A stretch of DNA of 64,000 nt from Nanobdellota archaeon (GTDB taxonomy: Archaea; Nanobdellota; Nanobdellia; Woesearchaeales; DATDXC01). The stretch is from NCBI GenBank assembly GCA_043818675.1, contig JBDRFR010000069.1:14877-78876 (forward strand), written 5' to 3'. Shown piece by piece: positions 2,701 through 53,588 of this stretch. The position numbers and the translations under genes were made by a program. The notes under the pieces are model-generated. The model was given only the letters and a program-made list of their open reading frames with translations. It was not told where the DNA came from and ran no database searches. Positions within the stretch are counted from its first letter, which is position 1. Each line of letters starts with the position of its first letter.

Positions 2701-2881
2701 TAAAGAGATACAAGTGCTAAAGCTAAGAAAAAAAGGGTTAAAACAGATAGAGATAGCAAAAGCGCTGAATATTTCCCAGCCTGCTATATCATCTTTTGAA
2801 CAAAACATTGCCCGCAAGATAAGATCTTCAGTTGAGGTATTAGGATTAGTCAAAGAGCTGGGCATTGATATTGAAAAATGA
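2690..2881 (+). CDS. Tfx-type HTH DNA-binding protein, tandem paralog (63 aa)
   Basis: 'FTDKEIQVLKLRKKGLKQIEIAKALNISQPAISSFEQNIARKI' is clearly paralogous to 2482..2700. Its stop overlaps the start of the 751-aa gene by 4 nt (ATGA), indicating an operon. Confidence 0.5.
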   Translation: MFTDKEIQVLKLRKKGLKQIEIAKALNISQPAISSFEQNIARKIRSSVEVLGLVKELGIDIEK

Positions 2882-7225: not shown

Positions 7226-7535
7226 GGAAATTAAAATGAGTAGTAGGCCCGTCTATCCTACTGACCGTATCAAAGGCACGGGGTTCGTCAGGACCTGTTC
7301 CTCAATGAGTAATAAGATTATGGGGCATATAAAATTTTTGGAAAAAATGGATGGATTTAATGTAAACTGTTTAAAGAAAATTATGCCACGATTCTGGGAA
7401 AAAAATGTCTCTATGATGGGAACTAAAATAGGTCTCGATATTGGGAAAAGTTTTGGATTTTTTGAATTGGTTTTAGAGTTTATTAAGGTTGGATTAAGTT
7501 TATTTTGCATAAAAGAGGTTGATTATGGCTGCTAG
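7218..7535 (+). CDS. hypothetical small protein (105 aa) overlapping the start of the giant gene
   Basis: ORF with a GGTGAGG Shine-Dalgarno-like motif upstream. No motifs. It overlaps the giant ORF start by 17 nt. Confidence 0.2.
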   Translation: MVKEIKMSSRPVYPTDRIKGTGFVRTCSSMSNKIMGHIKFLEKMDGFNVNCLKKIMPRFWEKNVSMMGTKIGLDIGKSFGFFELVLEFIKVGLSLFCIKEVDYGC

Positions 7536-10500
7536 TTGGTTGAATAAAGCAGGGAAAAGTAAGGTTTTGGTAGCTTTAGCTTTGTTTTGCTTACTGTTAG
7601 GGATGTTTGGCGTAGGGTTATATAATGTAGGAGCCAGTCAAGACGAACTACTAATTGAAAGAGAGAACTTGATTAATGAGTTAGGGAATTATTCATATTT
7701 ACTAAACACATCACTTAAGATTGATCATATATTTGTTGAGAATTATTCTTGTTCTTCAGTTGGATATCATACTGTTAAGGTTTTGACAGAAGGAGTGCAT
7801 GATCAATTATTTAAGTTTGGTGATGTTAATGCGTCAGCGCATAATCTGGCAACGTATTCATCCAGTATAACCAATAACACGATAATATGGTATCATTTCA
7901 ATAATGATTCTTCTGTATATGAGAATTATGGAACTGAAGAGTTAACTGCAGAAGATAGTATGGTTTTATTATTCCACTTTAACAATGATTCTAGTGTTGG
8001 TGAGAATGATACGCATGTTTATGATTTTTCAGGGAATGGGAATAATGGAACTGTGACAGGTGCTGTTTATAATTCTAGTGGGAAGTTGAATGGAGCGTTT
8101 GAGTTTGATGGTGATGGGGATTATGTTGGAACAAATTTTAATACAGATATCCAGAACTTTACTGTTTCTGTTTGGGCTAAAAGTCTGTCTGCTCCAACAA
8201 CAGGGGGTGTATATACAGCGGTTCTAGGAAGGGAGGAGAATTTTATTATTTACTGGGATGCTACAAGTGGCACATTTGATGCTACTGTTGCTTATAGGAA
8301 TTCAGCGGTTGGATGGACAGCTTCTGATTTTGGTCCTGTAAGTGCGAATGTATGGTATCATATTGTTGGGACTTACAATGGAACTACTTTGATTACTTAT
8401 AGAGATGGTGTTGAAATAGACACTTCTACATTTGGAGTTCCTCAGAGTACTTCTGATATGTTAGCAATAGGGGATTCTAGGGTTGGAGCAGGAAATTATT
8501 TCAACGGCTCAATAGACGAAGTAGCAATCTGGAACAGAAGCTTATCCGCAGCAGAAATAAAAGGCATTTACATGAGAGGGCTACCTGCACATGTTTATGA
8601 TTACTCACAATATAATAATCATATAAAAGCCAACAAAACTGATCCGTTTGAGCCAACCTTTACAGCAGCAGGTAAATATAATGGAGCGTTGGAGTTCTCA
8701 AAAGATGATTATCTAATTAAGGACAATTTCACATTAGTCGGCGGAAACGGAACAATATCATTCTGGTTCAAGCTCAAAAATAATTATGATTCAGCCAAAG
8801 ATAAACATATGATACCTTGGGAATACAGGGAAGATGATACCCCAAATAAAATGGTCATCAGGTTTGACGCAGGGACTGGCCAGTTAAGGCTTATAACATA
8901 TCCAGGTTCAGATGTACTGACAGATTCAGATGCAACTTCTTGGACAGCAGGTGTCTGGCATCATGTTGCATGGGTACATAACACTACCCATACTGTGATG
9001 TATGTAGATAATGTGTTACAGTCTGATGTTGACACAGCAACAGTTTGGTGGAATGACTTTGCAACAGAAAATAGTACGCTGTATATTGGAGCCGAATATT
9101 ATAGTGGAAAAATACAAAGTTACTTCAACGGAACAATAGACGAATTTATGTTATTTAACAGAAGCTTATCAGCAGCTGAAATATCAGACCTTTATGGTGG
9201 AAAAGCAATAACAGGATTGACTATATGGGATGATTCTGATAACAAGAAAGTATACGCAAATTACACTAAATTCTATGCAGACTATAATGACTCAAGCGCT
9301 AAGACAGCCATATACGGCGGCGGAAGATGGTGCGAGTTTGCGTTTAATAAGACAAACCTAGACTGGAGCATATATACCTACATCAATATGACCTTTAACC
9401 CCAACACATTAAGATATGAATTGATAGCCGATGGCGGTTATTTCAATAACCAGACAGAAAAACACATAGATGGTATGCCAGCTGGACAGTATTATTATAA
9501 TATATCCTGCTATGATGAGACTGGAGTTTATCAGAATGTTTCAGTTGTTGATTTTGTTAATGTTTCTGAATATGATACAGGTTTAGGTATTACGACAAGT
9601 GTTACTGCGCCTGATGTTAACCAAAATGTTATTTTTTATGCAAACTATTCAAGAAATGATGTTTGGGATGTTGATAATTGGGTTTACGGTAATGAGATTG
9701 GGAGGGTTGTGTGGAATAGTAGTTCTATAGGTAATGAAAGATATTATGATGCTATCCCGGCAGTGTTTGTTGATTTTGACAACGATGGTAAAAAAGATGA
9801 ATTTGTTATCTCTGATGGTAACTCAGGGACAATATATCCTTTTTATTCAAACGGTTCACAAATGGAATGGACAAACACACAACAAGGATATGACTCTGCA
9901 GAAATATCTGTTGGAGATTTGGATAGGGATGGTTATGAAAATGAGATAGCAGTTGGAGATTGGCTGAGCGGAACAAGTGATGTGATAATAATTAATGAGA
10001 CAGGTGCAACAGTCTGGTCAGCTGTGAGTAATGGACAGCCAATATATGCTATTGAAATTGATGATTTAGAAAATGACGGATCTCCAGAAGTTGTATTCGC
10101 TAAGACTACAGTCTTAAGCGTCTATAATATGACTGGCTCAGAAATTTGGAATTATACTCTGCCAAATTATGCTTTGGAAATAAGAATGGCGGATGTTGTG
10201 GGGAATGAAAATAAAGAGATTATTGTAGCTACTGCTTATGGGGATAAATTGATGGTATTTAATTCCTCCGGTACTAATTTATGGAACTATACTAATGGAA
10301 ATGATCCGATTTCGATTGCATTCGCAGATATTGACCATGATGGTGTTGATAACATTATTACAGGGATGAGGACCGGAAACCAAGTATATGCAATGAATGG
10401 TTCAGGATCTATGCTTTGGGGAGGGAGTAGTCTTAGCGGAGTTGCCGGACAGATAAATGAGCTTGCCACTATGGATTTGGATGGGGATGGGTATGAAGAT

Positions 10501-13500
10501 GACATTGTGGTCGGAGACCAAGCTGCTGTTAAAGGATATGATAACGATTCAACCAATCTATGGAATTTTAATTTACCCTCGGATGATATATCCTCAATCT
10601 CCGTAGGAGACATCGATAGCGATGGTGATAAGGAGATTATTGCAGGGGGCCTTACAGACGGTACAGTATGGGTACTTAATAGAACTGGCAGCTTAGAATT
10701 TAGCTATAAAATTGGAACCGGCCATATTGGAAATACCTTCTATGCAAGCTCTCCATCAACTGATATTTCTGATGTTAATAATGATGGAATAAATGATATA
10801 GGTGTTGGTATCTATCTAACTAGTGATGATAGTTATGGATATATCTTCCAGGACGTCTCCTGCACAATAAAATTCAACGATTCTGCAACTATTTATAACA
10901 TGACATGGGATTACGTTACTGACAAATGGAATTACTCAAGAACGTTTTCGAATAATGTTGTCTATGCATATAATGTAACCTGCAGTAAAGGTGGCTATGT
11001 AACTCAAATCCAGGAATCAACAGTTGATTTAACACAGACCTTAATAATATGGGACGACTCTAACTCAAAAGTAACATATGCAAATTACACCAAATTTTAT
11101 GCAAATTACACCAAATCAAACGGAACCCCATTGACAGGCAGCGGTGAATGGTGCGAGTTTGCATTCAATAAAACAGGCCTTAACTGGAGCTTTTATACCG
11201 CCTATAACATGAGCTATAATCCAACTACAAAATTATACGAGATAATTGCTGATGGCGGCTATATTAAAAATAACACAGAATCGCATATTGGCGGGATGCC
11301 TGTTGGCAATTATAGCTTTAATATTTCCTGCTATGGCGGCAAAAACTTAACAGCAACAGACACAGTAAATGTTGCTAAGTATGATACAGGTTTATCTTTA
11401 ACACAGTCAAATGTTCATGCTGATATTAACACAGATGTTGAGTTCTTTGCTAATTACACAAGAGATACTGTATGGAATGTGGACAACTGGTTCAGAGATT
11501 CAGGAGAAATTGGCAGAGTTATATGGAATAGCAGTGATGTTGGAAACAGTCTTGTTGCACTAAGACCAGCTGACTTATCTAATGACGGATATCTGTCTGA
11601 TATAGTTACAGTAAATGACTACAAGATTATTGCACACTATCAAAACGGATCAGTAAGGTGGACTTTTTCAACTGGAGTTATCCAACAGGCAGGATCCTTA
11701 AACATTGTCAATCTGGATAACGACGGATTTAAAGATGATATAATTACAAAATTCTCTTATAACATATTTGTCCTTAATAAGACTGGTGATCAACTAAACA
11801 AAACAACTGTTGCAGACGGCGGTTGGGGAATTGGAGTTGCTGGTGATGCAAATAATGACGGAATAGAAGATGAGTTAGTAGTATCAGGCGTAAATTCTAA
11901 TCCGGCAATATTATACAATATATCTAACAGCGGACTTTCTGTTGTTAAACAATGGAATTTTTCAGTACCAGATGATATGAGGGAAGTAATATTCGGAGAT
12001 TTTGACTCAGACGGTTTGGATGATGATTTTGCAATTAGTGGAGTTGATTCAGGAAAAGGAACTTATGTTTATAAATGGAACGGGACAAATTTATTTAATG
12101 TAACTTATGGTGGACTTGCTATTGCCAAAGCTGATATTGACCATGATGGTTTTGAAGATGATATAGTGATTGCAGAAAACGGCAATTATCTTGTTTATTC
12201 TTTTAATGGAAGCTATAATACAAAATACACAAGCACAGATGAAGCAATGGTATACAATACAGATCCAATATCAGTATCCGCAGAGATGATTGTACTGGAT
12301 TTGGATTCAGACGGATTTAATGATGACATCATACTGGGAGATAGAGGCGGAGCAGCTGGACCTGGAATTGTCTGGGCATTTGACAACAATAGTATTGGAT
12401 TGTGGAATATCACATTACCTGCAAACGGAGATGATGATTACATCTATTCCATGGTCGTTGATGATTTTAATAACGATGGTAAACAAGAATTGATCTTTTC
12501 CAGTGAAGAGTTTGATAAAGTTTATGTTGCCAATCTGTCAGGATATGTACTTTGGGACCAGATCATTGGACAAGGAGATATCTCAGTGATTAAAGGAAAA
12601 TCTCCTGGCATCATAAGTATTGACATAAATAAAGATGGAATTTCTGATTTTGCGACCGCTTCCGCAAATGGTTTTGTCCATGTTCTGCAGGACGTATCCT
12701 GCACAATCCAATATGAATCAGAAGGTGGAGAGATTAACAGGACTGGTCAGAATTGGGAAAATGGTTTAGTTGCTCTATATCATTTTAATAATGAGTCTGC
12801 ATATGGCGAAACAACTGTTGGAGTTAATAATGTAACGTATGACTTTGCACCAGGTCACTGTTATGATAACGAAACAGAAATACTAACTAATGAAGGCTGG
12901 AAATTATTTTCAAAATTAAATAAAACTGAGCAAGTAGCAACATTAAATCAGGAAACAAAAGAATTGGAATGGCAGCATCCAATGGAATATCAAGAGTTTG
13001 ATTATGACAATGATATGTATAAGATTATATTGGAGGATGGATCAGATTTACTTGTTTCAGAAAAACATAGGGTTTATGGAAAATCAGTAAGCATCATCGT
13101 GATGAGTGAAATCTTCAAAGATGATCTTATTTTCTCTGACCTGGAAAGTCAGGACAAAATGCCCCACATGAACTCTTTTGAGATGGCTCAAATCCCCTTT
13201 GAGGTTCTTAAGGTGATTGATGGTGACAATATCCATTTCAGAAATTTGGATAATTTTTCTACTCAAAGCTTTGAAGAGAACAGGGTCTTTTCTCTTAATC
13301 TTGATCAGAGCCTTATCAATCTTGGAAATGTCAATATTCATAATTCATCCAGCCACTTTTTTAGTTCTTCGGGAGTCATTGCCTTGCCTTTAGCTGGGTC
13401 TTTAGATATTTTCTTTAACTTTTCTATGAACTCAGGCTTCATAGGAAATTCATCTAATGGATGCCAGTCAATAGATTCACAAAACTGCTCATCTTCCCTA

Positions 13501-16500
13501 GTTAGTTTCCTTGATACACGAAATTCTTCAAATATTCTTCGCTTGTTCAATTCCTCTCTAGCTGCTTCAGACCAGTTTATCCATGGAAATGCTTCAATTC
13601 TTGCCTTAAAGGATTTGTCTACAGGATATATTATACTAGCCATTTATAATTCACCCCTTGCCCTTAATTTTTCTAATGCTTCTAATTTCTTAAGCACACC
13701 CTGTTTTGCAACTTCAGACCAATTAATGTCAGGATGCTTGTCTAACTTTGCCTTAAAATCATCAGGTACTGATATAGTAAACCTTTCCATTTTTGATGCC
13801 TCCTGGATGATACAAGATAATAAAATTTTGGGTTCATCCAACAATTGTATTACTAAACACAATTGTGTTTATAAATCTTTTGATAATTTCAAGTTGATGC
13901 CTATAACTGATGCGTATGGGCTAATCAATTCAGGAAAACAGGTTTATTTCCTGGATGGTTTTAATAATGAGGTTAAAGTTAAGTCGATTGTTAAAGAAAA
14001 GTACAATGGCAGAATATATGATGTCGATGTAAAAAATGATGTTGTTTTGGTAAGAAGGATTGATAGGAATAATCGCACAAATAATTATGATAAAAAAGCC
14101 ACGCAAGCAGGAAAAAATTCATGCCACAATTCTGGGAAATATTGTTATGATAAAAGGACTAAGGAAAACTTCTTTTCTGAAAATGAGGATGGTTTGGGTA
14201 TATTGAGTGAGAGGGGTTATGAAACTAATTATTATGGTATATGGTCTGGGAATAGCAATAACGGAACTATTTATGGTGCTACAGTTGATATGACTGGTGG
14301 GAAGTGGAATGGGAGTTTGGAGTTTGATGGGGCGGGGGATTATGTTGATGCTGGAGATACATTTGATATGGGAACAAATGATCTGTCATTATCTGTATGG
14401 TTTAAAACATCTGATAGTGGTTCAAAAATTAAAACAATTATTTCAAAATCTTATGCATGGGATACAGGTGCATATAATTTGATTATTACTGCTGGTAATA
14501 ATCTAAGACTTCATGCTGAGAATAATACTGGTCAGGGTGAAGTAGATATAATAAGTCCTCTAACTTATACTGATGGACAATGGCATCATGCAGTAGGTAT
14601 TTTTGATAGAGATAAAAATGCAATATTATATGTTGATGGATCTGAAGTTGGTTCAACAACAATGGCAAATATTCTTAATCAGGATCTGGATACTACCTAT
14701 TCATTTAGAATTGGAATGTCACATTGGAATAGTTGGCCCAGACCTTTCAACGGCTCAATAGACGAAGTTGCAATTTGGAACAGAAGTCTTTCTGAATCTG
14801 AAGTCTGGGACTTGTACATGTCGTCAGCACCAAAATATAACATGACATGGGACTATACAAGAAAGAAATGGAACCATACAAAACAGTTCACTTCATACGG
14901 TAATTATACTTACGGAATAACATGCGAAAAAGGCGGCTACACAACCCAAAGAAGCTCAAGTTATGTTGATCTAACCCAATCATTAACAATATGGGATGAT
15001 TCTGATTCAAAAACAGCCTATGCAAATTACACCAAATTTTATGCAAATTACATAAGATCAAACGGAACAGCAATGAACGGAAACTATTGGTGCGAGTTTA
15101 AGTTCAATAAGACAGGCAGATGGACAAAACCAGTCAATATGAGCTTTAATCCAGTAAGCTTACAATATGAAATAATTGCTGATGGCGGATATATTCAGAA
15201 TTCAACTGAAACGCATATTGACGGGATGCCTACTGGAAATTACAGTTACAATATCTCCTGTTATGGTGGTGAATATAAATCACTAACAGATACTGTAAAT
15301 ATAGCAAAATATGATACTGCACTTGCTTTAACCCAAACAAACATCCATCCAAATACCTATTCAGATGTTGAGTTCTTTGCTAATTACACAAGGGCTACTG
15401 TATGGGATGTAGACAACTGGTGGTGGGATACAACTGAGATTGGGAGGGTGGTTTGGAATACAAGTGCTCTTGGAGGGAGTTCACATACTGTTGATTTCTT
15501 TGATTGTTTGAATAGTGGAAAGAAAAATTGCCTTGCGACCACAGAATATTCTGATATCTGGATGTTTTATCCAAATGGAACACAGATTACAGCATCTGGA
15601 ACTGCCTCAAATCCAGGAGGAGATTTATTAGATGCTAATGTTTTTGACGGAGATGGAGATGGTTATGAAAATGAGGTTCTTATTGTTGGAGATAATAATC
15701 AGGTTTTAGTTGTTAACGAGACAAGAAATACTGTGTATACCTATACTGCTGGAGGAGATATTTTTTCTGTTGTTGGAGCTGATTTAGATAACGATGGAGT
15801 CAAAGATGATTTTGTTATTGGTGCTTATACTGGGTCTGTTTATCAGGTCATGGCATTTAATACTTCTGATGGAGTTAATTGGGTGAATTTTTGGAACGGA
15901 ACTGTTGGAGGAGTTATTCAGGAAATGGTTATTGGTGACTTTGATAGAGATGGAAGGGAGATTGATGTTGCTGCTACAGGGACTTCGAATGGAAATGTTA
16001 CTGTTTTTGTTGGGGATAATGGAACATTGATATTTAGTACTGTTGACCTTGGGGCATTATCTTCACTTACAGTGTCTGATTTGAATCATGATAATTACAA
16101 TGATGAGATAATCGTGGGGGAGACGGGTGCCACTAGGGTTCTTGCGTTTAGGTGGAATGGGACATGGGGAGCAGAAATGCAAGATACAGACAATGATACT
16201 AATGGTTGGCTTTGGTCAAACACTCTTCCAACATACAGTATTACTGAAATTGATACTTTTGATGCAGATTTAGATGGTTACAAAGATGAGATTATTTTTG
16301 AAGATGGAGGCAGTTCATCAAACTCAAAAATTTGGGCAGTGGATGAAGAGGGCAACTACTTGTGGAATTTTACATGGGGGAACACAATTGATGTTTCATA
16401 TAGTCTTAATGTTGCTGATGTGAATAACGATGGAAAGGATGAGATAATTTTTGGACCTAGGAATGCTGCTACATTGTATGTTTTGAATATCTCTGGAGAT

Positions 16501-19500
16501 TTATTGTGGAGTTATCCTCTTAATCAGGGTTGGATTGGTAATGCTTATGGAACTTCTCCAGGGATAGATATTTCAGATTTGAATAATGATGGTATAAATG
16601 ATATTGTAGTTTCAACTAATACTGTGGGTTATAAATATATTTTCCAAGACGCTAAATGCTCAATCCAATACGAATCAGAAGGCGGGGAGATTAACAGAAC
16701 AGGTCAGAATTGGGAAAATGGTTTAGTTGCTTTATTTCATTTTAATAATGAAAGTGCATATGGCGAAAACAGCAGCTATATTTATGATTTCTCAGGTAAT
16801 GATAACAATGGAAGTTGTACAGGTACAACATGCCCAACCTTTGATACAACTAGTGGAAAGTGGAATGGTAGTTTTGAGTTTGATGGCGTGGATGATTATG
16901 TTGCAATGTCTCAGGATGATAGTCTAAATTTTTCAGGAGATAGTGAGATTACCATTTCCTTTTGGGCTAAACTTGTATCAGCAGATAATAGGCATGCTGT
17001 TATTGGGGCGTGGGATGGTGAGTCTGGTTCTACTTCTGCTTATCTCTATATGGACAATTCTGGAGCTAATGGAATTATTATCAAGAATACAATAGGAGGT
17101 GATACTGGAATTAGAACATCAAGCACATCTTTTAATTTAAACACTTGGTACCACATAGTTTATACTTTTAATGGTGTCTTAGAGACAGTCTATCAAGATG
17201 GCACTCAAATTGATACAAATGATATAAGTGGAACCATGCGTAATAATGGTGAGACAGGTCCTTGGGTAGGTCATGCAATGAATGATGGAACAACTCCAGT
17301 ATATTTCAACGGCTCAATCGATGAAATCGCAATCTGGAACAGATCATTATCCGCATCAGAAGTTTGGGATTTGTATATGTCATCAGCACCAAAATATAAC
17401 ATGACATGGGACTATACAAGAAAGAAATGGAACCATACAAAACAGTTCACTTCATACGGTAATTATACTTACGGAATAACTTGCGAGAAAGGCGGATATA
17501 CAACTCAAAGAAGCTCAAGCTATGTTGATCTGACTCAGTCATTAACTATATGGGATGATTCCGATTCAAAAACAGTCTACGCAAATTACACCAAATTTTA
17601 TGCAAATTACAAAAGATCAAACGGAACCGCATTGAACGGTAATTATTGGTGCGAGTTTAAGTTCAATAAAACAGGTATATGGACAAAACCAATCAACATG
17701 AGCTTTAATCCGGTTTCCCTACAGTATGAGGTAATAGCAGATGGTGGATATATCCAAAACTCAACTGAATATCACATTGACGGTATGCCAAACGGTTATT
17801 ATGGGTATAATATAACATGTTACGGTGGTGATTATAAATCATTAACAGATATGGTCAATGTTTCTTTATATAATACAACTTTGGGAGTCAGCAGGAATAA
17901 TCTTGCGCCAGAGGTGAACGTTGTTACAACATTTTATGCAAACTATACAAGAAATGATGTATGGGATGTTGATAACTGGAAATTGGGACATGAGATTGGG
18001 AGGGTTGTTTGGAATACTAGTTGTCCAACATGCGGCAGTGTTTCTGCTATACCTGAATTTGTAGACTTCAATGAAGACGGTAAGAAAAGTGAATTATTCA
18101 TTCTTGCTGATGGTTTCCCTTATGCTATTTCAAGTAATGGTTCTAAGATCTGGACAAGTTCAACAGAGAGATATGTTCCTAGCCAAGCAGTAGCTTTTGA
18201 TGGAAATGGAGATGGATATGATAATTATGTTGTTGCAGTTGAGGATGTAAATTCTGGTTCAGGTATACGTGTGTATAACAGTACAGGGAATATCATTTGG
18301 GAATGCGGCTTTCCCGGAGACTTTATGTCTGTTGTTGCAACTGACTTAGATAATGATGGAAAGAAAGATGATTTTGTTGTAATTGATACATATACTCCTG
18401 TGGGTAATGTTTCCGCATATACTACTACTAACGGGCAAACATGGGTGATTAATTGGAGCCATATATTTCCAGCGACTAATACCGCAGATGGATCTATTAA
18501 GATAGGAGATTTAGACAACGATGGAAAAAAAGATGATTTTGCAATTGCAGGTGTGGAATATACGATTGCCCTAAATGAAACTGGAGGCGTTATATGGAAC
18601 ACAACTGACTTAGTTGATAGAGTAAATGGTGTTGGAATTGGAGATTTTGACCATGATGGTTATGAAGATGATGTGATTGTAGGGAATAGGGGATATTTAT
18701 ACATCTTCACTTTTAATGGAACTTATGGAGTTACATATACTACAAATGATGCAATTGCATCTTCTTCCTACCCTAACAGTGGAACACAATCAACTGTTAC
18801 TAGTATAGTTGTATTTGATTTGAATAATAATGGATTTAAAGATTCATTTGCTTTATCAGACATAACATATGATTCCATAGGTGTTTTTGACAACAATACT
18901 AATAATGTTTGGTTCCACAATACAAATGATTTTGGTGATGGAAGCATAGATGTAAATACTGTACGGGCAAGTGATTTTAATAATGATGGCAAAGATGAAC
19001 TGATGTTTGGTGCAGATAACGGGCTTATATATATTTTTAACAGCACAGGTTCTCTTTTGTGGAAATATGTTTTGATAGATCACGTGGGGGAGTCTTCTAG
19101 AGAGGATGCCGTTAAATCAGGCGACATCAATAATGATGGAATCTCTGATTTTGTAGCTGTCACTGTGAATTCTTACACTTACATATTCCAAGACGTATCC
19201 TGTTTCATAAGATTCAACGATTCAACATCAGTCTACAACATGACCTGGAACATAACTTTAGACAAATGGCAGTACCAAAGGACATTTCCTGACGTATCAA
19301 GATATAAATACAACATCACCTGCTCAAAAGGCGGATACATTACACAGTTTACAAACACTTCTTTTGCAACAGAAGACGGAAACCCAAGATGGAGTTCAAA
19401 TAAGACTAACCTAACAAGAAATTCACCATATTTAGCAGATGTCCATTTCAACATTACATTAAATGACATCAATCCAGCATCATACATATTCAGCTGGTAT

Positions 19501-31500: not shown

Positions 31501-34500
31501 GGCGGATTGGCAGAATTCAATGTCTACCCGACAAACATACTATACAGCTCTTACACAACAAAAGGCGACAGTATCCATTGTACGATAACAGCCATGTTAG
31601 ACGATATTAATGCAACCACGTACACAACAAAATCCAGGTACAGGATTTTTACTAATCAAAGCGATTTCATAGGCGGAACATTAGTTAACACCTCTATTAC
31701 TCACCAGCCCGGCAATATCACGCTATACCCTAACTCAACAGGCAACTATTCAAACACAACAGGATACTACATTTCACCTTCCATTGATTTCCAAAGATTA
31801 TCACCCTCCATCTCGACGATAAGCTGGAACGGTTCAGATACAGGCATCAGTATCCAGACAAGGGTTTCAGCTGACAACAGCACCTGGTCAGAATGGCAAG
31901 GGCCGCAATTGACAAACAGCCCAAATATTTTGGCGCTTATGCATTTCAATGACGCTAACACCACAGTGAACAACGACCTGCCATTGTCAGGCAATTTCAG
32001 TTATAAACAGGCCAAATGGAACAATGGATTATTGATAAATCACACAAGCTATATTAGTTACAATACAAGCTTGTTGAACTATTCAACAGGCACGATCGCT
32101 TTCTGGCTAAAGCCTCTTGCCAATTTACAAGAAGGTTACCTGTTCGACACAGCATACAATGTAAGCATCAACCGAATCTCCTTATACCTTGAAAACTCTG
32201 TTTTATTCTTTAGGATCAGGGACAGTAATGACCGCGACCATATTGTTAACACTACGGTTGACTTCCAGGAAAATGTATGGCAGCATTTAGCAGTAACCTG
32301 GAACTTAACTAACATGTCAATTTACGTAAACAATACTTTGTTCACATCAAACATCAGGTCAAATGAGATCAAAAATGATAGTAACACTCTTCTTTTAGAA
32401 AGATTTGAAGCAGGATCAAAAATACAGAATAATGGCGGCATTTTACAGGGCAGCCTGGTTGATGGTAAATACAGTAATGGGTTTTTATCAGCAAATACAG
32501 GAGACGTTATCAATTATTCCACAACAAACCTTAACATCACAAAAGGCACTATTGAATTCTGGCTGAAACTTCAAAACTCTTTAGACTCAAAAACTTACTA
32601 TTTGTTTGACACTGCGTATAATGACAGTATTGACAGGTTATCAATCTATTTAGAAAATTCAAAACTTAATTTCCTGATAAGGGATAAAGATGACCGCGAC
32701 CATTTGATTAACGCAAGCGTTAATTTCCAGGATGACATTTGGTATTCAATAGCTGCTGCATGGAACCAAACTAATATGAGCTTATACATCAATAATAGTT
32801 ATCAGGCAGGTGATTATAGAAGCACTGAAGTAGCTAACGATTCTGATACCTTACTGATAGAAAGGTTTGAATCAATCAATAAGATAGACACTAACGGCGG
32901 CAGTTTTAAAGGCAGCCTTACCGATGGCAAACATGATAAAGGCTTCTTATCAGCTATAAGCGGAGACGTAATCAATTATTCCACAACAAACCTTAACATC
33001 ACAAAAGGCACTATTGAGTTCTGGCTAAAACTTCAAAACACCTTAGATTCAAAAACTTACTATTTATTTGATACTGCTTATAATGACAGTATTGAAAGGC
33101 TGTCAATCTACCTGGAAAACTCAAAACTTAATTTCCTGATAAGGGACAAGGACGACCGTGACCATTTGATCAACGTAAGTGCAGATTTCCAGGCAGGTGT
33201 TTGGTATTCAATAGCTGCTGCATGGAACCAGACAAACATGAGCTTATACATAAATAACAGCTATCAGGCAGGCGATTATAAAAGTACTGAGATAAAAAAT
33301 GACACAAGCACATTGCTCTTAGAAAGGTTTGAATCAATAGCTAAAATAACAGCTAATAACGGTTATGTTTCAAGCGGCGTAAATCTCACCCAGGGCAGGC
33401 ACAGTAAAGGAATGATCACCGACAGACCAGGCGAATTTGTAAATTATTCTAGTGATTATTTCAACCGCACCAAAGGCACTATCGAATTCTGGATTAAACC
33501 TGTTTGGCCAGGAACTGCTGATAAAACTGATTATTTCTTTGACCAGGGCAGCGGTTCACAAGCAAACAGGATGTTTATTTCAAAAGGCAGTGATCCGGCA
33601 AGCGAATTAAGCATATCAAACTCAAGCATAGTATTTGCCATTTTTGACGGTGCAGGAACATCTCATTATGTAAGTTCTGATATTAGTTCATGGCAATCTT
33701 CGGAATGGCACTCAGTTGCAGCAGTTTACAATTTCACTGGATCATCTTCCTACATGGCTTTATATGTTGACAACGTTTTGCAGGACAACACCCCGACAAA
33801 TCCAGGCGCCTTCACACTCAGCGCAAAATCCATTTTATACATTGGTTCAAACAGGCTAAAGGATCATTATTCAAATGCCACAATTGACTCTTTAAGGATT
33901 TCAAACAACCCAAGGTCAAACTTCAGCTATATTTACGCTGACGATACTATTCCGATTAGTAATAAAGCAGCCTTACAGCATATTGGCAATAGTTATAATT
34001 TAAGTTATCCAGCTAATGCAACAATTGACTCCTTTAGAATATCAAACATACAAAGAACAGGCTTTAGCTATATCTACGCAGATACAATACCATTGCTTAA
34101 CAAAGCAGCCTTATTGCATATTGGCAATAGTTACAATCTAAGTTATCCAGCTAATGCAACTATTGACTCTTTAAGGATATCAAACACACAAAGAACAGAC
34201 TTTAGCTATATTTACCCAGGTGACACACTTCCGATGTCTTCCAAAGCAAAAGAGTTTTTCATAGGCACAAACTACACAAAACACCAGCAGATAAACTCCA
34301 CTATTGATGAGTTTGTAATATACAACAGTATTCAAGATATAGGCGACATTTATCAGACATCGCATACAGCTTTCCAGGGCACTGTTCCCACGCCGCACCT
34401 TAGGTTTTTACAGTACAAGATTAACTTCCAAACAAACTTCACTAACCAAACACCAATCCTTGAAAAGCTGACTATTCAGCAGGATGATTTCCCTATCATT

Positions 34501-37500
34501 ATCAAAAACAAGGCTCCGACAGCCCCTTCCTTATTAACCCCTGCTGATAATAATTGGCTTACGACAGCCACACCTCTGCTAAACTGGACAGAAAGTATCG
34601 ACGTTGACAACGATATTGTTTATTATAATTTATTGATTGACGATGATAGTGATTTCTTAACACCCTATATTGAAAAGGCCAATCCCGGCTTTAATTTAAC
34701 TGACAGTAATTATACAATTAACAGCTCAGAAGCACTCGAGCAATCAACCTATTATTGGAAAGTTAGGGCATTTGATTTGGACAACGCTGATCAGCCCGGC
34801 GAATCAAACGCATCGTCGTTTTCCCAGACTTTCACACTAAGCGTTGATTCTGTTTATCCTAAGATATTCAATGAATCCAAAAGTCCTGATGGCTTTATCT
34901 ATGAGATTTACAACGTAACATTTTTCGTTAACGTATCAGAGTCAAACATTTTGAACGTGACATTAGAAGCTAACTGGTCAAGTGCAATGGTTAATTATAC
35001 AGTCAATAATTATACTGGCACAGGTTCTAACAGGAGGTATAATTATACTGTAAGTAGCACAGAGCTTAGTGCACTTGAGCTTGTCATGTGGCGGTTCTAT
35101 GTAACAGACTCTTCCGGCTCGGTCAATAGAACCCCTCAGCATAACTTCACTGTCCAGCCGGCTGTTGATCTGAACTTATCAGGCATAACACCGCCTGATA
35201 TTATCTATTCCAATCTGACCAGGTTTAATGTTACAATTTTTAACCAAGGCGACGGTGCCGCATCGAATATTAATGTAAGCTGCTATGTTAATGATACGTT
35301 CATTGACAGTTACATTATATCAACAATTGACGGCTTATCCCAAAACAGTTCATATTGCAGCTATACAGCTGTTTTTGGCACAAGTTTCATTCTCGATGCA
35401 ACTGTTGACCCAGCTAACACTATCCCTGAATCAAACGAACTTAATAATGATGGCAACATATCATTTAGTGTCCTGCAAAAAACAGGCATGTCTGCTTATG
35501 ACCAGGAAGACGACGATGAAGATAACGCAGGATGGTTATCTGAGCACGAGACTGCCCCGCTGCAGATGACCTACTACTTTGTAAATTATACAAGCGATCT
35601 GGACAACTCTGCCATTTCTGACGGCATTTGCACAATCTACCTGAACAATTCCGCGATACAGATGACTTATAATTCCAGCGCAGGGTTATATTATTACAAC
35701 CGTTCCTGGGCATTTGCCGGAAGCAACGACTGGAACATAACCTGCAAAAAACCCTTGTATGAAAACAAGACCTATATTTCAGAGACCTATGTCAGGATCT
35801 TATTAAGAAACGCATCAGCTATCGGTTTAACTACACTAACAAGGCACCTAAACCCAGCCGATCCTGTTAATATAACAGTTACTGTCCCAAATCAGAACAT
35901 TCTCTTAAACCTTAGCAGTGTCTGGACAGAGATCATAAAGCCTGACGGGTATAAAGAAAACCTATCGATGAGTGGCGAGCCTTCTGGTGGAATTTACAAT
36001 TTAACATTCAGGAACACTTCCCTGGTCGGAACATACACTGCTAAGTTCTTTGCCAATTTAACTGACGGGTTCAAAGGTGTTGAAACAGCTCGGACTAATT
36101 TCTCTGTTGAAAATATAAGTATGCCGATCTATCTGAACAAATCCAGGATTAATGTTAGCGAACATGTAAAGATATACGGAAAAGCAAGAAGATTTAACAA
36201 CAGCAACTATTTCAATATAACAGGCACAAACCTGTCAATCTGGCAGGATGGTATATTTAACGCAACTGTTATAACTAATTCCACTGCTGATTTTAATAAG
36301 ACAATCATATTTAAGATAGCAGGCACAAGGACTATCAAAGTTAACATTACATCAGCTGAAGGCATATACGGCAATAACCAAACTTCATTAATTGTCAATA
36401 TTCCCCTGCGAAACATTTCAGCAAGAGGTATTACAACAAACACCCGATATGTTAATTATAATGAGACTGTAAATTTATCTATCACTATTCCCACTGAAAA
36501 CATTGGCTCTGCAGATCTTAGCAGTGTTTGGGCAGAAATTACAAAACCCGATTCAAGAAAAGTCAACATAAGCTTATCAGGATCTAGTCAAGGTGGTGTT
36601 TGGAATACCACATTTACTAATAATACATTGCTTGGTACATATACTGTCAGGTATTATGCAAACTTATCAGACGGATTCCGGTACGTAGAACAGGCTATAA
36701 CAAACTATTCGGTGGAGAATATCTCGTTATCGATATATCTTAACAAATCCGTAATCAACAACACTGAAACTATAAAAGTTTACGGAAAAGCCAGACGGCA
36801 CAACGGTTCCAGCTACTTCAATATAACCGGAACAACAATATATATTTGGCAGGATAATGTTTCAAACGGTTCCATAATTACGAATACATCTGGAGATTAT
36901 AACACCACAATTTCCTCATATGTTGCAGGCATAAGGCACCTAAAAGTCAATATTACAACACAAGAAGGATTATACAGTTACAATCTAACAACTTTAAATA
37001 TTAGCATACCGCTTCGTAATAAACAGGCATTAGGTCTTACTACTGATACTAACATGATCCATTACGATGAAGAAGTCAACATCTCAATCAATATACCCTT
37101 GGAATACATAGGAAACGATGAATTAGATAGTATCTGGGCAGAAATTACAAAACCTGACTCCAGAAAAATTAACATAAGCTTTTCAGGATTGAGCACTGGC
37201 GGTATTTGGAACGCATCATTTGATAACACCACGGTTTTAGGCAGATATACTATAAGATATTATGCTAATTTATCGAGTGGTTTTTCTATAACTGAAACAT
37301 CGATTACAAATTTCACCGCAGCTAACATTTCTATTTCGCTTGTGCTAAGCAGGTCAATCCTAAACACAACAAACAACTTAACAGTCAGTGGTAAAGCAAT
37401 AATCTTCAATGGGTCAGTGGCTCAAAATGTAACAGACAGAAACGTTACAGTATTTTTGGGAGGTATACTAGTATCTAACGCAACAACTGACTCTTATGGC

Positions 37501-40500
37501 AATTATAATACAACTTTTTCAGTGCCTACGACAAACCTGGGTGCTGTAATTATAAAAGTTAACATCACTTCAGCTGACAACCTCTATGCATCAAACCAGT
37601 CCGCAGTCACTTTATGGGCTGAAACCATTTTAAATTACACAGCGTCTGCTGATTATTCTGGCACTGTAACAAACTTCACTGTTACAGCCAATTTTGTGCG
37701 TACAGATACAAACACATCTGTCCCCGGAACCTTCAATATTACTATACACAATAACAGCCTAAGATATTACAGGGACTGTAACGGAACTTTATGTATTAAT
37801 TCATTCCTTGTGCCTGGCAGCGTTATCTGGGGTAATTACAGCTTTAATATAACAGCGACTAACATATCTGGTTATTATCATAATGCTTCTGTAAATTTTA
37901 CAGCAATGTTAGAATATAAGAGCACCACTGCTTCGGTCCTTAACTCTAAAAACAAGACTATCATTGATTTTGCAACAGGTTCAACTTATGTATACTATCA
38001 TAACATTACAATTGTCAATTTAGGCAATGCAACAATGAACAATGCTTACGCTCTTGCTGACTTATCCGATCTGGATTTTGATTCTATTGTTAACACCTCA
38101 AGCTGCGGCAATATTCCCCCTAAAAGCAGCTGCAACCAGTCGTTTGCCTTAACTCTTAATTCAAACTCCGAACCTGACGTAAAACTTATCATTTGGAGGG
38201 TAAACCACACCAATAACGACGGCTCGTACTCAAAATCTTCAAATTCTGTCAGGATGACCACCACAATTGTTGGCGCAGTCATAATGGACACATCCACTGG
38301 TTTGATTGACCAGGACATAGAACATGGCCAGTCAGTTAGTTCAGGTTTTGCAATTCAAAGTAATGGTAATCTGGTCCTAAGCAGTGTTGCTGTAGAGCTT
38401 ATAAACGACACTATGCCAAGCTCTTGGTTTAGCTTCACCGGTTCTACGAGTTTTGGCACGATCCCGGCAGGCCAGACAGGCACGGTTACATACTCAATTA
38501 CTATCCCAGAACATTACGCTCCTGGCACATATAATGCAACCATAAACGTAACTGCATCAAACCATAATGAAACATACATTAAGGTCAACATTACCGTTCC
38601 TCTAAATGGCACATGGATTATCAGCGGGGATATCGGTAAGACCACAAATTTCACCCAGAATCTTAATGGCACTGTTGGCAATCTTACGCTCAGCAATCTG
38701 GGCAATATTGAGATGAATTTCAGCATATCCTACTTGCCTGGCGGAAGCAGGCTATACACTGATTTTGGCAGTGATTTATTCCAGGAAAACCAAGCTGGGT
38801 ACAATCCCACCTGGCTGAATATACCAAAAAATACAAGCAGGAATCTCAGCATTTTCCAGAAAAGCTGGTCAAGCAGCTTATCAGATGTTGGCATTAACAT
38901 TTCCATCATTAATTTAAGCGGCACCCCTACAAACAGGAGCATCTATATGGTGTTTAATATTAAAGATGATCCACCTGTTGTTGAAGCCATGTTTTACCTT
39001 GTAAACAATTCCGTCCAGAATTACACTGAATTTAACAAGTCTATTACCATAAAAGCAACTGTAACTGACGACATTGATATTGAACATACCACAAGCAACT
39101 CATATTTCAATGTTAGCTACTATGGAGATTATACAGTTATCAACGCTTCATTTACCGAGTACAGGTACGATAGCGGTTATAAGGAGATAAATTTCACAGC
39201 TAACTTCACACCCACAACGATAGGAGCCCACAATGTCACATTAACTGTCAAAGACAGCGCTTCCCAGATTACAAGATATTCAGGCTACAATTTCACCTCA
39301 ATCGGCAACACTTCCGTCAATATTACATTTAATCTATCAGTCGCCCAAATAACCCAAATAACCCAAAGATTAAGCAAGAATATTACAGTTAATATCACAA
39401 TCAAAAATACTGGATTTGTAAAAGCATATTATAACAATTTAACATGGATTTTACCTTCGGGGTGGTCGATTTATCCAACATTTGACTATTTATCAAGCAT
39501 ATCTTCCGGTGCATCAAAATCAAAGCTTTTCAACTTATCAATCCCTATAGCTACCAGTCCAGGATTATATACAATAACGGCAATCACTAACTGGACAAAT
39601 CCGATAAAAACAAGAAATAGCACTACTGAAACCTTCAGGATAAATGTAACATCCAATAAAATCCTGAATTTAACCATTAACAATAAGACAATAACAATAA
39701 ATCATAGCTCTCAGCGGTCGTATGTGTTTGGTGTGAATGCTACAGGAAATGATAATTTGACCAATGTAAATATAAGTTGTATATCCGGTGAGGTATGCAA
39801 TTTCACAATATCCTATAATAATTCCTTATTTAACGTTAGTGCTGGTTCAGTTATTTATGTAAACACTACAATTACTGTCCCGGAATATCAGGCTCCGGCC
39901 AACTACACCGGAATCTTCAATGTTTCCACAAACAGCTCAAACTCAAAGACTATAAATTTAACAGTGGAAGTGCCTGCTGACGAAACATGGAATATTAGCA
40001 TAGCCACTATTTCAAAAAGTGTCGGCGCTTTAAACTCAGGTATTGTCAGCAAATTCAACATAACAAACAATGGCAACATTATGATAGGTTTCAAGCTTAA
40101 CACCACGAACAACACTATTATTAGTCTTAACGCAACCAGTATAACCGTCCAAAAAAACAGTACAAGTGAAGTATTGATAAGTTACAGCTCACCACAACAG
40201 GCAGCTGATTATATAATCGTTATTATGATCACTAATAATTCTCTGTCGCAAAGGCAGCGCAATTTAACAATTAATCTAACTGTACTTCAGTTCCAGGTAA
40301 ACATAACTTATCCATTAAATATATCTCCGTTAACTAACATTACAGCAAACCAAAACATAACAATAAACGCCACAGCCTATTATATCAATGAAAGCTTGTC
40401 TGAAAATGTGACATGGGCTGTTAAATTTAATGATAGTGTATGCAATGTTTACAATTATACGTACATTAACAGCGTATGGCAGGTCAGGTGCACAACCCCT

Positions 40501-43500
40501 GACATAGACGACGGCAAATACTATTATCTTAAGCTCACTGCTAATTATACAACCTTAAACAATGCATTGACTGACACTGAACCCAACGCTATTTTATACC
40601 GTGACGTCACCGCTCCAACCATCATTTCAAAGAATAAGAAGAACATTGCGCCAGGTAGTGACGTGAACCTAACATTAAACATTACTGACAATGTTAATGT
40701 TTCAACTGTCATTGCTCAGCTGACCTATCCAAATATCACAGGCAATATATCCACCATAATTAATTATACAGCCTCCTATACAAACGGATTATATATTATC
40801 AGCTTATATGATTTGGTCCATATAGGCGATTATGATATTACATACTATATTAATGATACAACAGGCAATTCCCTAACCGACACAGACAATTTCGAGGTTT
40901 ATTTGATAAAACCCAGATTTTCCGGAACCATATCTGACTATCAGGGTAATGGTGTGCCATCTTTTTGGGAATTTTATAGGTCAAACACCTCTACCCTTCT
41001 CACGAATATAACGACTAACTCAACAGGAAGATACAATAGCGGAGATATTCATAACCGGACTTATGACCTTAGAATTAGCGCTCTTGGCCATAAAATAATC
41101 ATTAAAAATCTGAACTTCACAACAATTAAAAATGACGCAATAGACCTTGATTTGATTATTGGCACTGACATTGACACAATTATTACTAACTACAGGCCGT
41201 TAAAAGGTATCGGTGTTAATACAACCTTTAATGTAAGCTATGTCAACTTCACGATTAATTATAGCGGCACAAGTCCTGTATCAGAAACAGGCATAAAGAT
41301 TTTTAGATGTTCAAACTGGTCTTATAAGGTCAGAATTTGCGATAACACCTGGACAGAATTAAACAGCACTGTTTATGTTAGCAGGGATATAGTAATCGCT
41401 TCTTCTTCAGGATTTTCTGCATATATAGCTGCCGAGCTAAAATGCGGCAACGGCATATGCGAAGAGATATACGGTGAAACTTCAGCAAACTGCGCAGCTG
41501 ACTGCATAACAGCCCAGGGTCCAGCTTCAATTTCTGTTAGCAGCGGTGGTGGCGGTGGTGGCGGTGGCGGAGGCAGCGGACTGTCAAAAGAAGACTTAAG
41601 AGCTGAATTAGAAGCATTAAACTTGCTAAACATTACTGATAAGATTGAAGATATTGTCAAAGCCACAAAAAAACTGGCAGGTGTAGAAATGGCGACCACC
41701 TCGATATATAAGGAGCTTTTCCCAAAAGAAGACGCCTCAGCAAGGATTAGGATGCGAAACACTCTCGATACCAACATCAGATTAAACACCAAAGTTGAAG
41801 GCGCTGTAAAAGATTTTGTATTCTTTGAAAATTATGCAGTAACTCTTTCAGGCGGTGAAGAAAAAGACATTATAGTAAGAATAACCATCCCGCAGTTTAC
41901 AAAACCTGGATCATACGATGGTGACATTATTTTAATGCGTGACAATGAAGAGGTCAGGATCCCGACGACCATTAGAGTTTTACAGGAAGAAGGAAAACTT
42001 TTAGACGTCAAAATCCAGCCGTTAGTAGACTCAATCTCGCCTGGCGAAACTCTGCTTCTTCGAACAGACTTGATAAACCTTGGTAAGACTAAACGTGTGG
42101 ATGTCCAGTTTAAGCTGCAATTAACCGACCCCAGGACAGGTGAAATACTAAAAGAAACAGAAGAGGCATTTGCAATCGAGACATCACTAACAACAACAAA
42201 AGAACTTGAGATTCCAAAAGAGATCAAATTAGGCAAATATTTAGTTCAGGGCACTGCATATTATAGCAGTCTTGAAGACCGTAATCAGGAAGCAGTATCT
42301 ATTGCAACCATAAACATCCAGCAGCCATTTTTAGAAAGGGAATTTTTAGGCATTAAGAATGAAAGTTATATGTTCGGATTTATTATAGCTTTAGCATTGA
42401 TTGCACTGTTTATTTTCTACACATATAAGCAGAAAAAGAAGAAACGGTACATTAAGGTAATAGATCTTAAAACTTTGCCAAAACCCGGAAAGAATTCTGG
42501 ATTTATCGGTAAGATAGCAGAAACAGGCATTAGGACTTTCATTGACATTAACAAGCTTCAGACACATACACTTATAGCTGGCGCAACAGGCAGCGGTAAA
42601 ACAATAGCTATCCAGGACATTATCGAAGAGTCTCTTTTAAAAGGCATCAGTGTGATAGTCTTTGATCCTACTGCTCAATGGACCGGCTTTTTAAGAAAGT
42701 GTAAACAGCCGTCTATGTTAAAACGCTACAGTTATTTTGACATGAAGCCAAAAGACGCAAAAGCTTTCAAAGGCAACATCAGGACCATTACAAATCCGCG
42801 TGAGATTATTGAAATTAAGCAATTCATGGCTTCAGGTGAGATCACAATCTTTAACACAAGCAATCTCGAGCCAAAAGAGATGGACATTGTAGTAGCATCG
42901 ACTGTCCAGCAAATATTCAAGGCAAACCTAGAGGAAAGCCCTGACCTAAAAACTCTGATAGTCTATGACGAAGTTCACCGGCTGCTTCCAAAATTCGGCG
43001 GCAGCGGCAAAGGCTTTATACAGGTTGAAAGAGGCGTTAGAGAATTCAGGAAATGGGGTGTTGGCATTGTATTGATAAGCCAGGTGCTCAGCGACTTCAT
43101 CGGTGAGATCAAAGCTAATATAGGCACAGAGATCCAGTTAAGGACCCGTTACGAAAACGATCTCGAAAGGATCAGCATGAAATACGGTGAAGATATTCAA
43201 AAATCTATTGTAAAGGCCGCTGTAGGAACAGGTATGATCGTCAATGCTGAATATAACCATGGCCGCCCATATTTCGTCAGTTTCCGGCCAATACTTCATT
43301 CAATAACAAAAATAAATGACAAAGACCTTGCTAGTTATACACAATACGCAAAACGCACAGAGGATATTACTTACCAGCTTGAACAATTAAAACTTTTAAA
43401 TGTTGACATATTTGATTTAGAATTAGAGCTGAAGTTGTCCGATAGTAAAATTCGTTCCGGCCAGTTTGAAATGGTCGAGATTTACCTAAAATCTCTTGAG

Positions 43501-53460: not shown

Positions 53461-53588
53461 TTTATTCCTCCATAATTACGCTTTCATTTACATTTGCGCA
53501 TAACAAAAATTATGCATGTTCAGCATAAAACTATATTCTTGTCTTCGTTTTTACCCTCATCAATTAAGTTGTGTAGGCATAACAAAAA

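Follow-up and report, generated by a model that had tools for sequence, protein, structure and literature searches.

The DNA examined here is a stretch of 64,000 nt from a Nanobdellota archaeon (contig JBDRFR010000069.1; hereafter the window), whose plus strand carries an open reading frame (ORF) of 12,098 codons at 7519..43815, counted from a TTG at 7519. The probable start is the ATG at 7525, the third codon of the frame, which has a GAGGT motif ahead of it; translation from this ATG gives a product of 12,096 aa, 1.34 MDa and pI 4.5. The ORF is probably a real, single gene encoding a SPEARE-family protein of a DPANN archaeon of the Nanoarchaeota/Woesearchaeota type, which would bind a host cell and carry a ring-forming ATPase. 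Judged from its sequence, the gene appears to be an unusually large addition to the known DPANN SPEARE-type surface-ATPase family, with an unusual ectodomain design. At 12,096 aa the product is the largest SPEARE-type protein that we could document, the next largest that we found in the literature being 9,409 aa. A preliminary description of this DNA had treated the protein as a surface adhesin and missed its C-terminal transmembrane (TM) helix, HerA/FtsK-like ATPase and coiled coil, which make it more than an adhesin.

The C-terminal SPEARE module (41761..43812, +) was delimited by similarity to NAR1_1133, by Pfam matches and by a structure model. It is composed, in this order, of two juxtamembrane β-sandwich domains, a TM helix, an ATPase of the HerA/FtsK type and a coiled-coil tail. 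In a BLASTP comparison the C-terminus of the giant protein is 41% identical to NAR1_1133 over 615 aa (E 2e-151), and the alignment spans both β domains, the TM helix, the ATPase and the coiled coil. The reference was the C-terminal 662 aa of NAR1_1133 printed in Fig. S18 of the supplementary information of Hamm 2019 (PMC6642349). A poly-Gly run lies ahead of the module in both proteins. Four features that characterize SPEAREs were found, namely C-terminal homology, TM topology, at least one LamG domain together with other adhesion domains, and a DPANN host. None of the Pfam scans detected a peptidase or nuclease family in the giant protein. As protease and nuclease domains are also absent from the type proteins (Reva 2023, PMC10266531), their absence here is not disqualifying.

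A hydropathy scan revealed only two hydrophobic segments in the whole protein. The first is an N-terminal signal peptide or signal anchor (7525..7632, +; MAASWLNKAGKSKVLVALALFCLLLGMFGVGLYNVGA followed by S). The second is the predicted TM helix at aa 11619-11637 (42373-42429, +), which is followed by KQKKKKRY, as expected from the positive-inside rule. One TM helix near the C-terminus would therefore leave most of the length, about 11,600 aa, outside the cell. The distribution of N-x-S/T sequons fits this predicted topology: the ectodomain has 580 of them (5.0 per 100 aa) and the tail has two (0.44 per 100 aa), an 11-fold difference in density.

The ATPase is predicted to be catalytically intact. 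Its Walker A (GATGSGKT, 42580-42603, +) and Walker B (LIVYDEVH, 42955-42978, +) motifs are both intact and, like the Arg-rich motif, are invariant in an alignment of 34 sequences. Pfam matches in the P-loop domain are to DUF87/HerA, HerA_C, ResIII, TrwB and FtsK. In a search with a profile built from the 34 homologues, HerA was the nearest relative of solved structure, followed by TcpA, FtsK, VirB4 and EccC. The structure model of the domain (predicted local distance difference test, pLDDT, 83) gives the same order, with Sulfolobus HerA (4d2i) as the best fold match (E 3e-8). The RecA-like P-loop core, the Walker motifs and the Arg-rich motif are thus shared with the HerA/FtsK/VirB4/VirD4 translocases. 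However, the protein differs from the HerA/FtsK translocases in that a single TM helix tethers the ATPase to a giant ectodomain, and it is not a HerA helicase sensu stricto. There is no HAS-barrel, as only about 48 aa, modelled with one β-hairpin, separate the TM helix from Walker A; no NurA partner is encoded in the window; and the NCBIfam HerA models score 27-29 bits, far below their cut-offs of 800-970. Assignment as a type IV secretion system (T4SS) ATPase of the VirB4/VirD4 kind was likewise rejected, the VirB4, TraC and TraD models scoring 18-30 bits against cut-offs of 366-1,177 and the flanks containing no T4SS genes. The proposal that such proteins belong to a type IV secretion system (Reva 2023) was set aside as an analogy at the superfamily level, HerA being closer than VirB4 in both profile and fold. 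Finally, readings of SPEAREs as restriction endonucleases or serine proteases find no nuclease or peptidase family here; the ResIII match corresponds to the P-loop core common to HerA and DUF87.

The family proved to be large. A word-indexed search gave 562 matches, and 493 representative clusters were retrieved at E <= 1e-30. Loci in genomes were found only in Woesearchaeota, Micrarchaeota, Aenigmatarchaeota, Altiarchaeales and Pacearchaeota, in agreement with the lineages listed by Hamm 2019 (PMC6642349). These loci came from an alignment-based scan; a scan of genome contigs with a single ATPase sequence had given no match. Among the 150 best representatives the length ranges from about 550 aa to 6,253 aa. 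Members at genome loci range from 551 aa to at least 3,772 aa, a lower bound set by ORFs that end at the fetched flank. Expression of a SPEARE has been established by proteomics in Candidatus (Ca.) Nanohaloarchaeum antarcticus, and a role in host attachment was proposed (Hamm 2019, PMC6642349).

The giant protein resembles NAR1_1133, the founding SPEARE (Ca. Nanohaloarchaeum antarcticus, a nanohaloarchaeon; 5,998 aa; SPEAREs of Ca. Nanopetramus SG9 reach 8,553 aa; PMC6642349), in its export signal, its huge LamG-bearing ectodomain and its DPANN host, as well as in the Gly run, the two juxtamembrane β domains, the single TM helix, the cytoplasmic P-loop domain and the coiled coil. However, it is about twice as long, its seven mega-repeats with FG-GAP propellers are unreported for SPEAREs, and the serine-protease and BC-toxin-like regions of NAR1_1133 were not detected in it; it also carries a Hint-like insertion with an antisense toxin-antitoxin (TA) cassette. 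The source organism also differs from nanohaloarchaea, being of a non-halophile, Woesearchaeota-like lineage, although the pI of 4.5 is acidic. The same succession of signal, giant ectodomain, TM helix, ATPase and coiled coil is found in SVXNc_0300 (9,409 aa) and BNXNv_0298 (8,880 aa) of cultured nanohaloarchaea, whose ATPase was described as 'VirB4/TraG-like' and for which host binding and powered secretion were proposed (Reva 2023, PMC10266531). Their ectodomains are made of about 75 tandem Ig-like domains, whereas the giant protein mixes propellers, LamG, discoidin and Ig-like domains. The gene downstream encodes a second VirB4-like ATPase in those two loci and a coiled-coil protein here.

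The integrity of the reading frame was examined from several angles. The ORF listing confirmed one uninterrupted frame at 7519..43815 in a window without any ambiguous base. At 37% GC about 0.07 stops per codon are expected, so that an open run of 12,098 codons is impossible by chance. Among the DNA repeats within the ORF, the best reaches 90% identity over 300 nt, and exact repetition extends to 98 nt at most (14824 and 17383). Such divergence renders a misassembly by repeat collapse unlikely, and the mega-repeats look like old duplications, unlike the near-identical copies that are prone to collapse. The DPANN origin suspected earlier is also borne out: aRF1 and neighbouring proteins are 100% identical to NCBI proteins of a 'Nanoarchaeota archaeon' metagenome-assembled genome (MAG), with exact matches for aRF1 and four other flanking proteins (locus tags ABIC04_), and the closest relatives are Woesearchaeota. 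In contrast, the statement that this is one of the largest prokaryotic genes was too strong, since bacterial genes can be far larger. A preprint on giant genes reserves the term 'giant' for at least 30,000 aa, archaeal proteins above 10,000 aa being rare (West-Roberts et al. 2023). Like halomucin, the Omnitrophota 'Archaeovorins' of that preprint resemble the present protein in being surface proteins of great size made by small or specialised prokaryotes. However, Archaeovorins are bacterial and reach at least 30,000 aa. The glycosyltransferase, hydrolase and peptidase domains that they contain were not found in the giant protein, and no homology was detected. No tRNA and no Rfam family was found in the window by RNA gene scans.

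Domain content was determined by Pfam scans of overlapping 1,000-aa pieces and by hidden Markov models (HMMs) built from the window protein itself. Behind the signal lie two LamG domains (Laminin_G_3, Pfam E 1.4e-46 and local HMM) at aa 202-347 and 398-555 (8122..9183, +). They are followed by seven mega-repeats (9223..27954, +), delimited by self-comparison, HMMs and an AlphaFold model of unit 6. Their IWDD motifs lie at aa 569, 1177, 2491, 3344, ~4756, 5622 and ~6230, and they start at nt 9223, 11047, 14989, 17548, 21784, 24382 and about 26182-26200, within a few bases of the positions given in the preliminary description. The units are 35-65% identical to each other in protein sequence. In each, a β-sandwich is followed by a short 'FYANY...EIGRVVWN' segment, a propeller of 7-8 FG-GAP blades and a second β-sandwich; units 2-5 carry, as already noticed, one or two additional LamG domains. 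The 'Cys domain' and 'IFQD domain' of the preliminary description are not separate types: a local HMM assigns both to one β-sandwich family, present in 19 copies.

The seven propellers total 52 blades and contain all 49 integrin-type DxDxDG Ca2+ loops of the protein, which has in addition 12 LamG domains. In the AlphaFold model of unit 6 (pLDDT 75), an 8-blade propeller sits between two β-sandwiches, and its neighbours in the PDB are generic propellers. The resemblance to the integrin α head, with its 7-8 FG-GAP blades, Ca2+ loops and adjoining β-sandwiches, holds at the domain level only: here seven propellers stand in tandem in one chain, and there is neither a β-subunit nor an I-domain. The propeller unit is rare. 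Among 5.8 billion proteins about five full-length relatives were retrieved, with 32-41% identity, the named one being from a Pacearchaeota MAG, and within the SPEARE family the unit occurs in one of 259 members (P0287).

The repeats are followed by a repetitive region rich in Gly and Asn (aa ~6830-7400; 28006..29718, +), probably a β-helix, which has no Pfam match. Homology of this region to the N-terminal Gly-rich region of NAR1_1133 was considered and rejected, the match being at the motif level only (E 0.016). A minus-strand ORF of 176 aa (28311-28841) in the same region is probably due to chance, as antisense open runs of 99-178 codons occur in the gene. The distal ectodomain (29749..37521, +) contains three more copies of the β-sandwich, a discoidin (F5/8 type C) domain at aa 7889-7999 (31183-31515), four tandem LamG domains at aa 8178-8803 (32050-33927), a CARDB domain at aa 9217-9310 (35167-35448) and three repeats of about 200 aa with Gmad2-like Ig domains (35734-37521), all on the plus strand. 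Pfam matches in the last part (37522..41760, +) are to Ig-like, NEW3 (NPCBM_assoc), CarboxypepD_reg-like and DUF4625-like modules; it ends in a Cys-rich motif (CGNGICEE...) and a run of ten Gly (41545-41574). The discoidin, fourfold LamG, CARDB and Ig-like modules announced downstream of the repeats were thus all recovered.

Comparison with unit 5 revealed that the LamG domain of unit 2 is split, between 'VTYDF' and 'SGNSNNGT', by an insertion of 467 aa (12847..14247, +). The preliminary description had missed this Hint-like insertion and the antisense TA operon that it carries. The insert is made of a Hint N-lobe (CYDNETEILT...VSEKH; 12859-13083, +, with Cys1 at 12859, Cys1781 of the protein), the antisense TA stretch, a Hint C-lobe (13930-14094, +; ending in IYDVDVKNDVVLVRRIDRNN followed by R) and a tail of about 50 aa. 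Assignment to the Hint family is tentative. The profile matches are all below curated cut-offs (intein_Nterm E 2e-4, 21-22 bits against 24.5; Intein_splicing E 1.6e-3; Hint_2 E 1.5e-3), while Cys1781 and 'VSEKH' align in register with the true mini-intein in the aRF1 of a related archaeon, and the C-lobe is similar to intein blocks F and G. The C-terminal block reads ...IDRNN followed by R, with the terminal Asn preserved, Asn in place of the penultimate His, and Arg at +1. Compared with LamG paralogues that are intact, there are four additional residues before Cys1 and about 50 after the Hint domain. Canonical intein splicing was rejected, since the +1 nucleophile is missing, the penultimate His is lost and the host LamG would not be precisely restored. 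The +1 Arg excludes splicing of this type; cleavage may still occur. A PDB sequence search with a mini-Hint construct returned nothing useful.

As in inteins and in intein-like or pretoxin-HINT domains, a Hint fold appears to lie within a host domain and to tolerate an insertion in the slot between its lobes. Unlike in inteins, what fills the slot is not an in-frame homing endonuclease: it is an entire TA operon, encoded on the opposite strand. Rickettsia palindromic elements are a known case of in-frame selfish DNA that persists inside coding sequence by keeping the frame open. No report of an arrangement combining intein, toxin-antitoxin and antisense orientation was found in a full-text literature search. 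No Hint domain was detected in 259 family proteins. The related aRF1 mentioned above (P0148) has a canonical mini-intein (C...HN followed by S), and the aRF1 of the window (47045-48142) has no intein. A bona fide Hint/PT-HINT domain, with scores above the Pfam cut-offs (Intein_splicing 41.7 bits, PT-HINT 36.1 bits), Ser1 and Val at +1, is present in an Ig-rich surface protein at locus L060 (1-2409, -), about 250 aa downstream of a nested TA cassette. Hint domains may thus be recurrent in surface proteins of this sort.

The TA element occupies 13084-13881 on the minus strand (798 nt, 266 codons), in the endonuclease slot of the Hint domain, and the giant frame passes through it without a stop. 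It has the organization expected of a type II TA operon, and is predicted to be one: a toxin of a known family, antitoxin genes, tight coupling and an operator. The toxin gene (13084..13341, -) encodes an 85-aa protein of the YafQ/RelE family that matches TIGR00053 over nearly its full length (E 3.4e-9). Its codons coincide exactly with codons of the giant ORF, whose reverse complements they are, and TTA, CTA and TCA are not among them. The second gene (13338..13643, -) overlaps the start of the toxin gene by 4 nt and encodes an antitoxin-like protein of 101 aa (DUF2683, E 2.5e-4). The third (13647..13790, -, from the ATG at 13790; the ORF extends to 13862) encodes a 48-aa antitoxin of the ribbon-helix-helix (RHH)/VapB-like type (VapB_Sulfo, E 2e-5). 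The control region (13799..13881, -) contains a TATA-like TTTATA (13870-13875), a perfect palindrome, AACACAATTGTGTT (13856-13869), and a GGAGG Shine-Dalgarno motif (13799-13803). The three genes abut on the minus strand, and the plus-strand translation of this part is junk rich in Ser, Asn, Leu and Phe.

A metagenome scan with the toxin identified two relatives, at loci L059 and L060, with 58-61% identity. L059 has a free-standing, two-gene version with 11-14 stops in every antisense frame. In L060 (2473-3240), which comes from another metagenome, the same three-gene cassette is found in 768 nt. It is 69% identical to the window copy in nucleotide sequence and 60-70% in protein sequence, with homologues of both antitoxin genes (70% for the DUF2683 protein) and a conserved control region. 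On the opposite strand of L060 a single frame stays open throughout the 4,203-nt locus, with no stop through the cassette; in this host ORF the cassette is preceded by an Ig-like Big_13 domain and followed by the Hint/PT-HINT domain. Both cassettes are multiples of three in length and have the same element frame open. Scanning of viral contigs gave no match to the toxin family, and a PDB sequence search with the toxin gave nothing useful.

We next asked how often such openness would be expected. For each copy 3,000 sequences were simulated in which the TA amino acids were kept and synonymous codons were redrawn from the codon usage of the window. On average 5.1 and 6.1 antisense stops were expected, and none of the 3,000 sequences was stop-free for either copy. 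As the two copies share a common ancestry, these two results are not independent. Substitutions between the window and L060 copies are distributed 62/47/114 over the first, second and third positions of the TA codons, which suggests that the TA genes are the frames under purifying selection at the protein level and that the host frame is constrained only to stay open. Moreover, the absence of stops in either copy at 31% nucleotide divergence argues for continuing selection in both hosts. The nested arrangement is seen at two loci, the window and L060, and is apparently undescribed. It is quite possible, if somewhat short of probable, that the two cassettes represent a lineage of three-gene RelE/YafQ-type TA elements of about 770-800 nt, with their own TATA element and palindromic operator, which has adapted to antisense, in-frame life inside long DPANN-type surface-protein genes; their synonymous sites would be constrained so that the host can be translated through. 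In the window, location in a Hint slot may make it possible to excise the junk peptide once the protein is exported.

The surroundings of the giant gene contain a downstream partner gene and a second, shorter paralogous system (56097-62446, -), both missed before. The partner (43858..44919, +; NCBI MFH1642037.1) encodes a 353-aa coiled-coil protein without TM helix, presumed cytoplasmic. In tblastn searches, 13 of 20 related DPANN loci proved to have a homologue of it, which follows the ATPase gene by 40-1,400 nt on the same strand. The short paralogue (56097..58421, -), identified by sequence comparison, has 774 aa. An ectodomain of about 240 aa is followed by a TM helix and by the ATPase and coiled coil already described; over 420 aa the paralogue shares 52% identity with the C-terminus of the giant protein. 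Its start is overlapped by 4 nt, indicative of translational coupling, by the gene for a secreted PKD/Ig protein of 1,342 aa (58418..62446, -), homologues of which lie upstream of mid-size family members at four other loci (L004, L005, L007 and L013). The family thus appears to combine a conserved anchor-motor module with ectodomains that can be exchanged and that are either part of the same chain or the product of a neighbouring gene.

Several other genes were noted in the window. Four tandem paralogues (51786-55228, -) encode small secreted proteins of 245-286 aa, 62-86% identical to each other, with N-terminal hydrophobic signals and no family match; their homologues occur at three loci with short-form ATPase genes (L020, L012 and L010). 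A 751-aa protein with an N-terminal hydrophobic segment (2878-5133, +) resembles the N-terminal part of the PKD protein over a segment of 136 aa (49% identity), which suggests a module common to surface proteins of the window. About 1.2 kb upstream of the giant gene is a TA-like pair of HEPN and nucleotidyltransferase (MNT-type) genes with overlapping ends (5201-6303, +). Directly upstream of the giant gene, a 310-aa protein (6293-7225, +) with an N-terminal zinc ribbon of the IS1/IS1595 type (weak NCBIfam match) is possibly a transposase remnant. A Lys/Glu-rich coiled-coil ORF of 294 aa (44886-45770, +) overlaps the end of the partner gene and has no homologue in related loci.

From these data a mechanism can be proposed. 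The N-terminal Sec-type signal would export the giant chain, and the sequon-rich ectodomain, with its LamG, discoidin, FG-GAP and Ig-like domains, would reach out from the small cell to bind glycans or surface proteins of a host cell. A single stop-transfer TM helix would anchor the chain, leaving the ATPase and the coiled coil in the cytoplasm together with the coiled-coil partner encoded next door. The ATPase may oligomerise into a membrane ring like its HerA/FtsK relatives, thereby bundling several giant chains, and ATP might drive the movement of a polymer (DNA or protein), or else the remodelling or retraction of the anchor at the site of contact. The Hint domain might cleave the chain, and the TA cassette would be a selfish or stabilising passenger. 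Since the only export signal is N-terminal and the only anchor and motor are C-terminal, the frame must stay open from end to end, which explains why the Hint domain and the nested TA operon are both in frame and free of stops.

Some observations weigh against this picture. The window comes from a MAG contig of short-read type, and no independent assembly of the giant gene was found; aRF1 and the two flanking window proteins that were looked up are single-member clusters. NCBI lists exactly two protein accessions in the interval flanked by ABIC04_03990 and ABIC04_04005, a number that fits either a 105-aa ORF (7218-7535) plus one giant coding sequence (CDS), or a giant gene annotated in two pieces. 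Without a +1 nucleophile in the Hint domain, the two parts of the split LamG domain are probably not joined again. No other component of a secretion or DNA-transfer system was found among the scanned window ORFs of at least 150 aa. Moreover, host binding, the ligand, the oligomeric state and the ATPase substrate are all inferred. The lectin, integrin-like and Ig-like array on which the preliminary description based a carbohydrate- and host-surface-binding repertoire is confirmed by Pfam and HMMs; the binding itself, and with it host attachment by the giant protein, is plausible.

The alternative that survives best, though we consider it unlikely, is a non-symbiotic coat or matrix protein comparable to halomucin or to S-layer-associated glycoproteins, forming a protective or nutrient-capturing glycocalyx, the ATPase serving only in its own export, assembly or turnover. 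Huge LamG-rich proteins are indeed the commonest architecture among archaeal proteins above 5,000 aa, no host-specific or effector domain was detected in the Pfam scans, and the short family members of about 775 aa are almost devoid of ectodomain, so that the ATPase module can work without an adhesin. However, the family is essentially limited to DPANN lineages with reduced genomes, and its ectodomains are hypervariable between relatives, as illustrated by the single other occurrence of the propeller unit and as expected for host-interaction surfaces. In addition, ATPases of the FtsK/HerA superfamily are polymer translocases rather than Sec-type export motors.

It is improbable, as a full account of the protein, that it is an autoprocessed, polymorphic-toxin-like or shed adhesin, in which the Hint domain cleaves at aa ~1780 and thereby frees, or leaves separately anchored, an N-terminal piece of 1,780 aa (two LamG domains and two propeller units), discarding the TA-antisense junk peptide. 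The Hint N-terminal motifs in register with a true mini-intein, the +1 Arg that bars canonical splicing and not cleavage, and the bona fide Hint/PT-HINT domain with Val at +1 in the L060 surface protein would all suit such processing, as would the finding that the ectodomain and the cytoplasmic parts of a SPEARE run in different gel fractions (Hamm 2019, PMC6642349). However, no Hint match in the window reaches its curated threshold, the penultimate position of the C-terminal block is degenerate, and no toxin domain was found. Autoprocessing is in any case compatible with a host-binding SPEARE and does not exclude it. Finally, it is very doubtful that the ORF is not a single functional gene, being an assembly chimera, or inactivated by the Hint/TA insertion and open by chance: the MAG origin without independent confirmation, a mobile-looking 798-nt cassette and the possible annotation of two CDSs point that way, but LamG resumes in the same frame directly after the insert, the lengths of insert and cassette are multiples of three, about five antisense stops would be expected with the TA proteins fixed and no simulation was stop-free, the diverged L060 copy is stop-free in the same frame and flanked by coding sequence on both sides whereas free-standing L059 is not, the part of ~9,850 aa that follows the insert lacks a separate signal peptide, and the repeats are too diverged for collapse.

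The interpretation as a single SPEARE gene places this architecture firmly in a Woesearchaeota-type lineage, outside the nanohaloarchaea in which giant forms have been described. The family is defined by a conserved module of about 700 aa, comprising a Gly run, two β domains, a TM helix, a HerA-like ATPase and a coiled coil, and also by a cytoplasmic coiled-coil partner gene and a freely exchangeable ectodomain of ~240 to ~11,600 aa. It provides a concrete target for the question of how surface attachment is coupled, in DPANN cells, to an ATP-driven machine in the cytoplasm. The antisense TA operon nested in two loci is a clean case of selection on both strands of the same DNA, and a possible route by which selfish modules persist in, or stabilise, giant genes. 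If the proposed cassette lineage is real, giant genes, rich in repeats and otherwise prone to deletion, could be protected by nested addiction modules where reductive pressure on the genome is strong, and antisense transcription of the cassette could modulate the expression of the giant gene.

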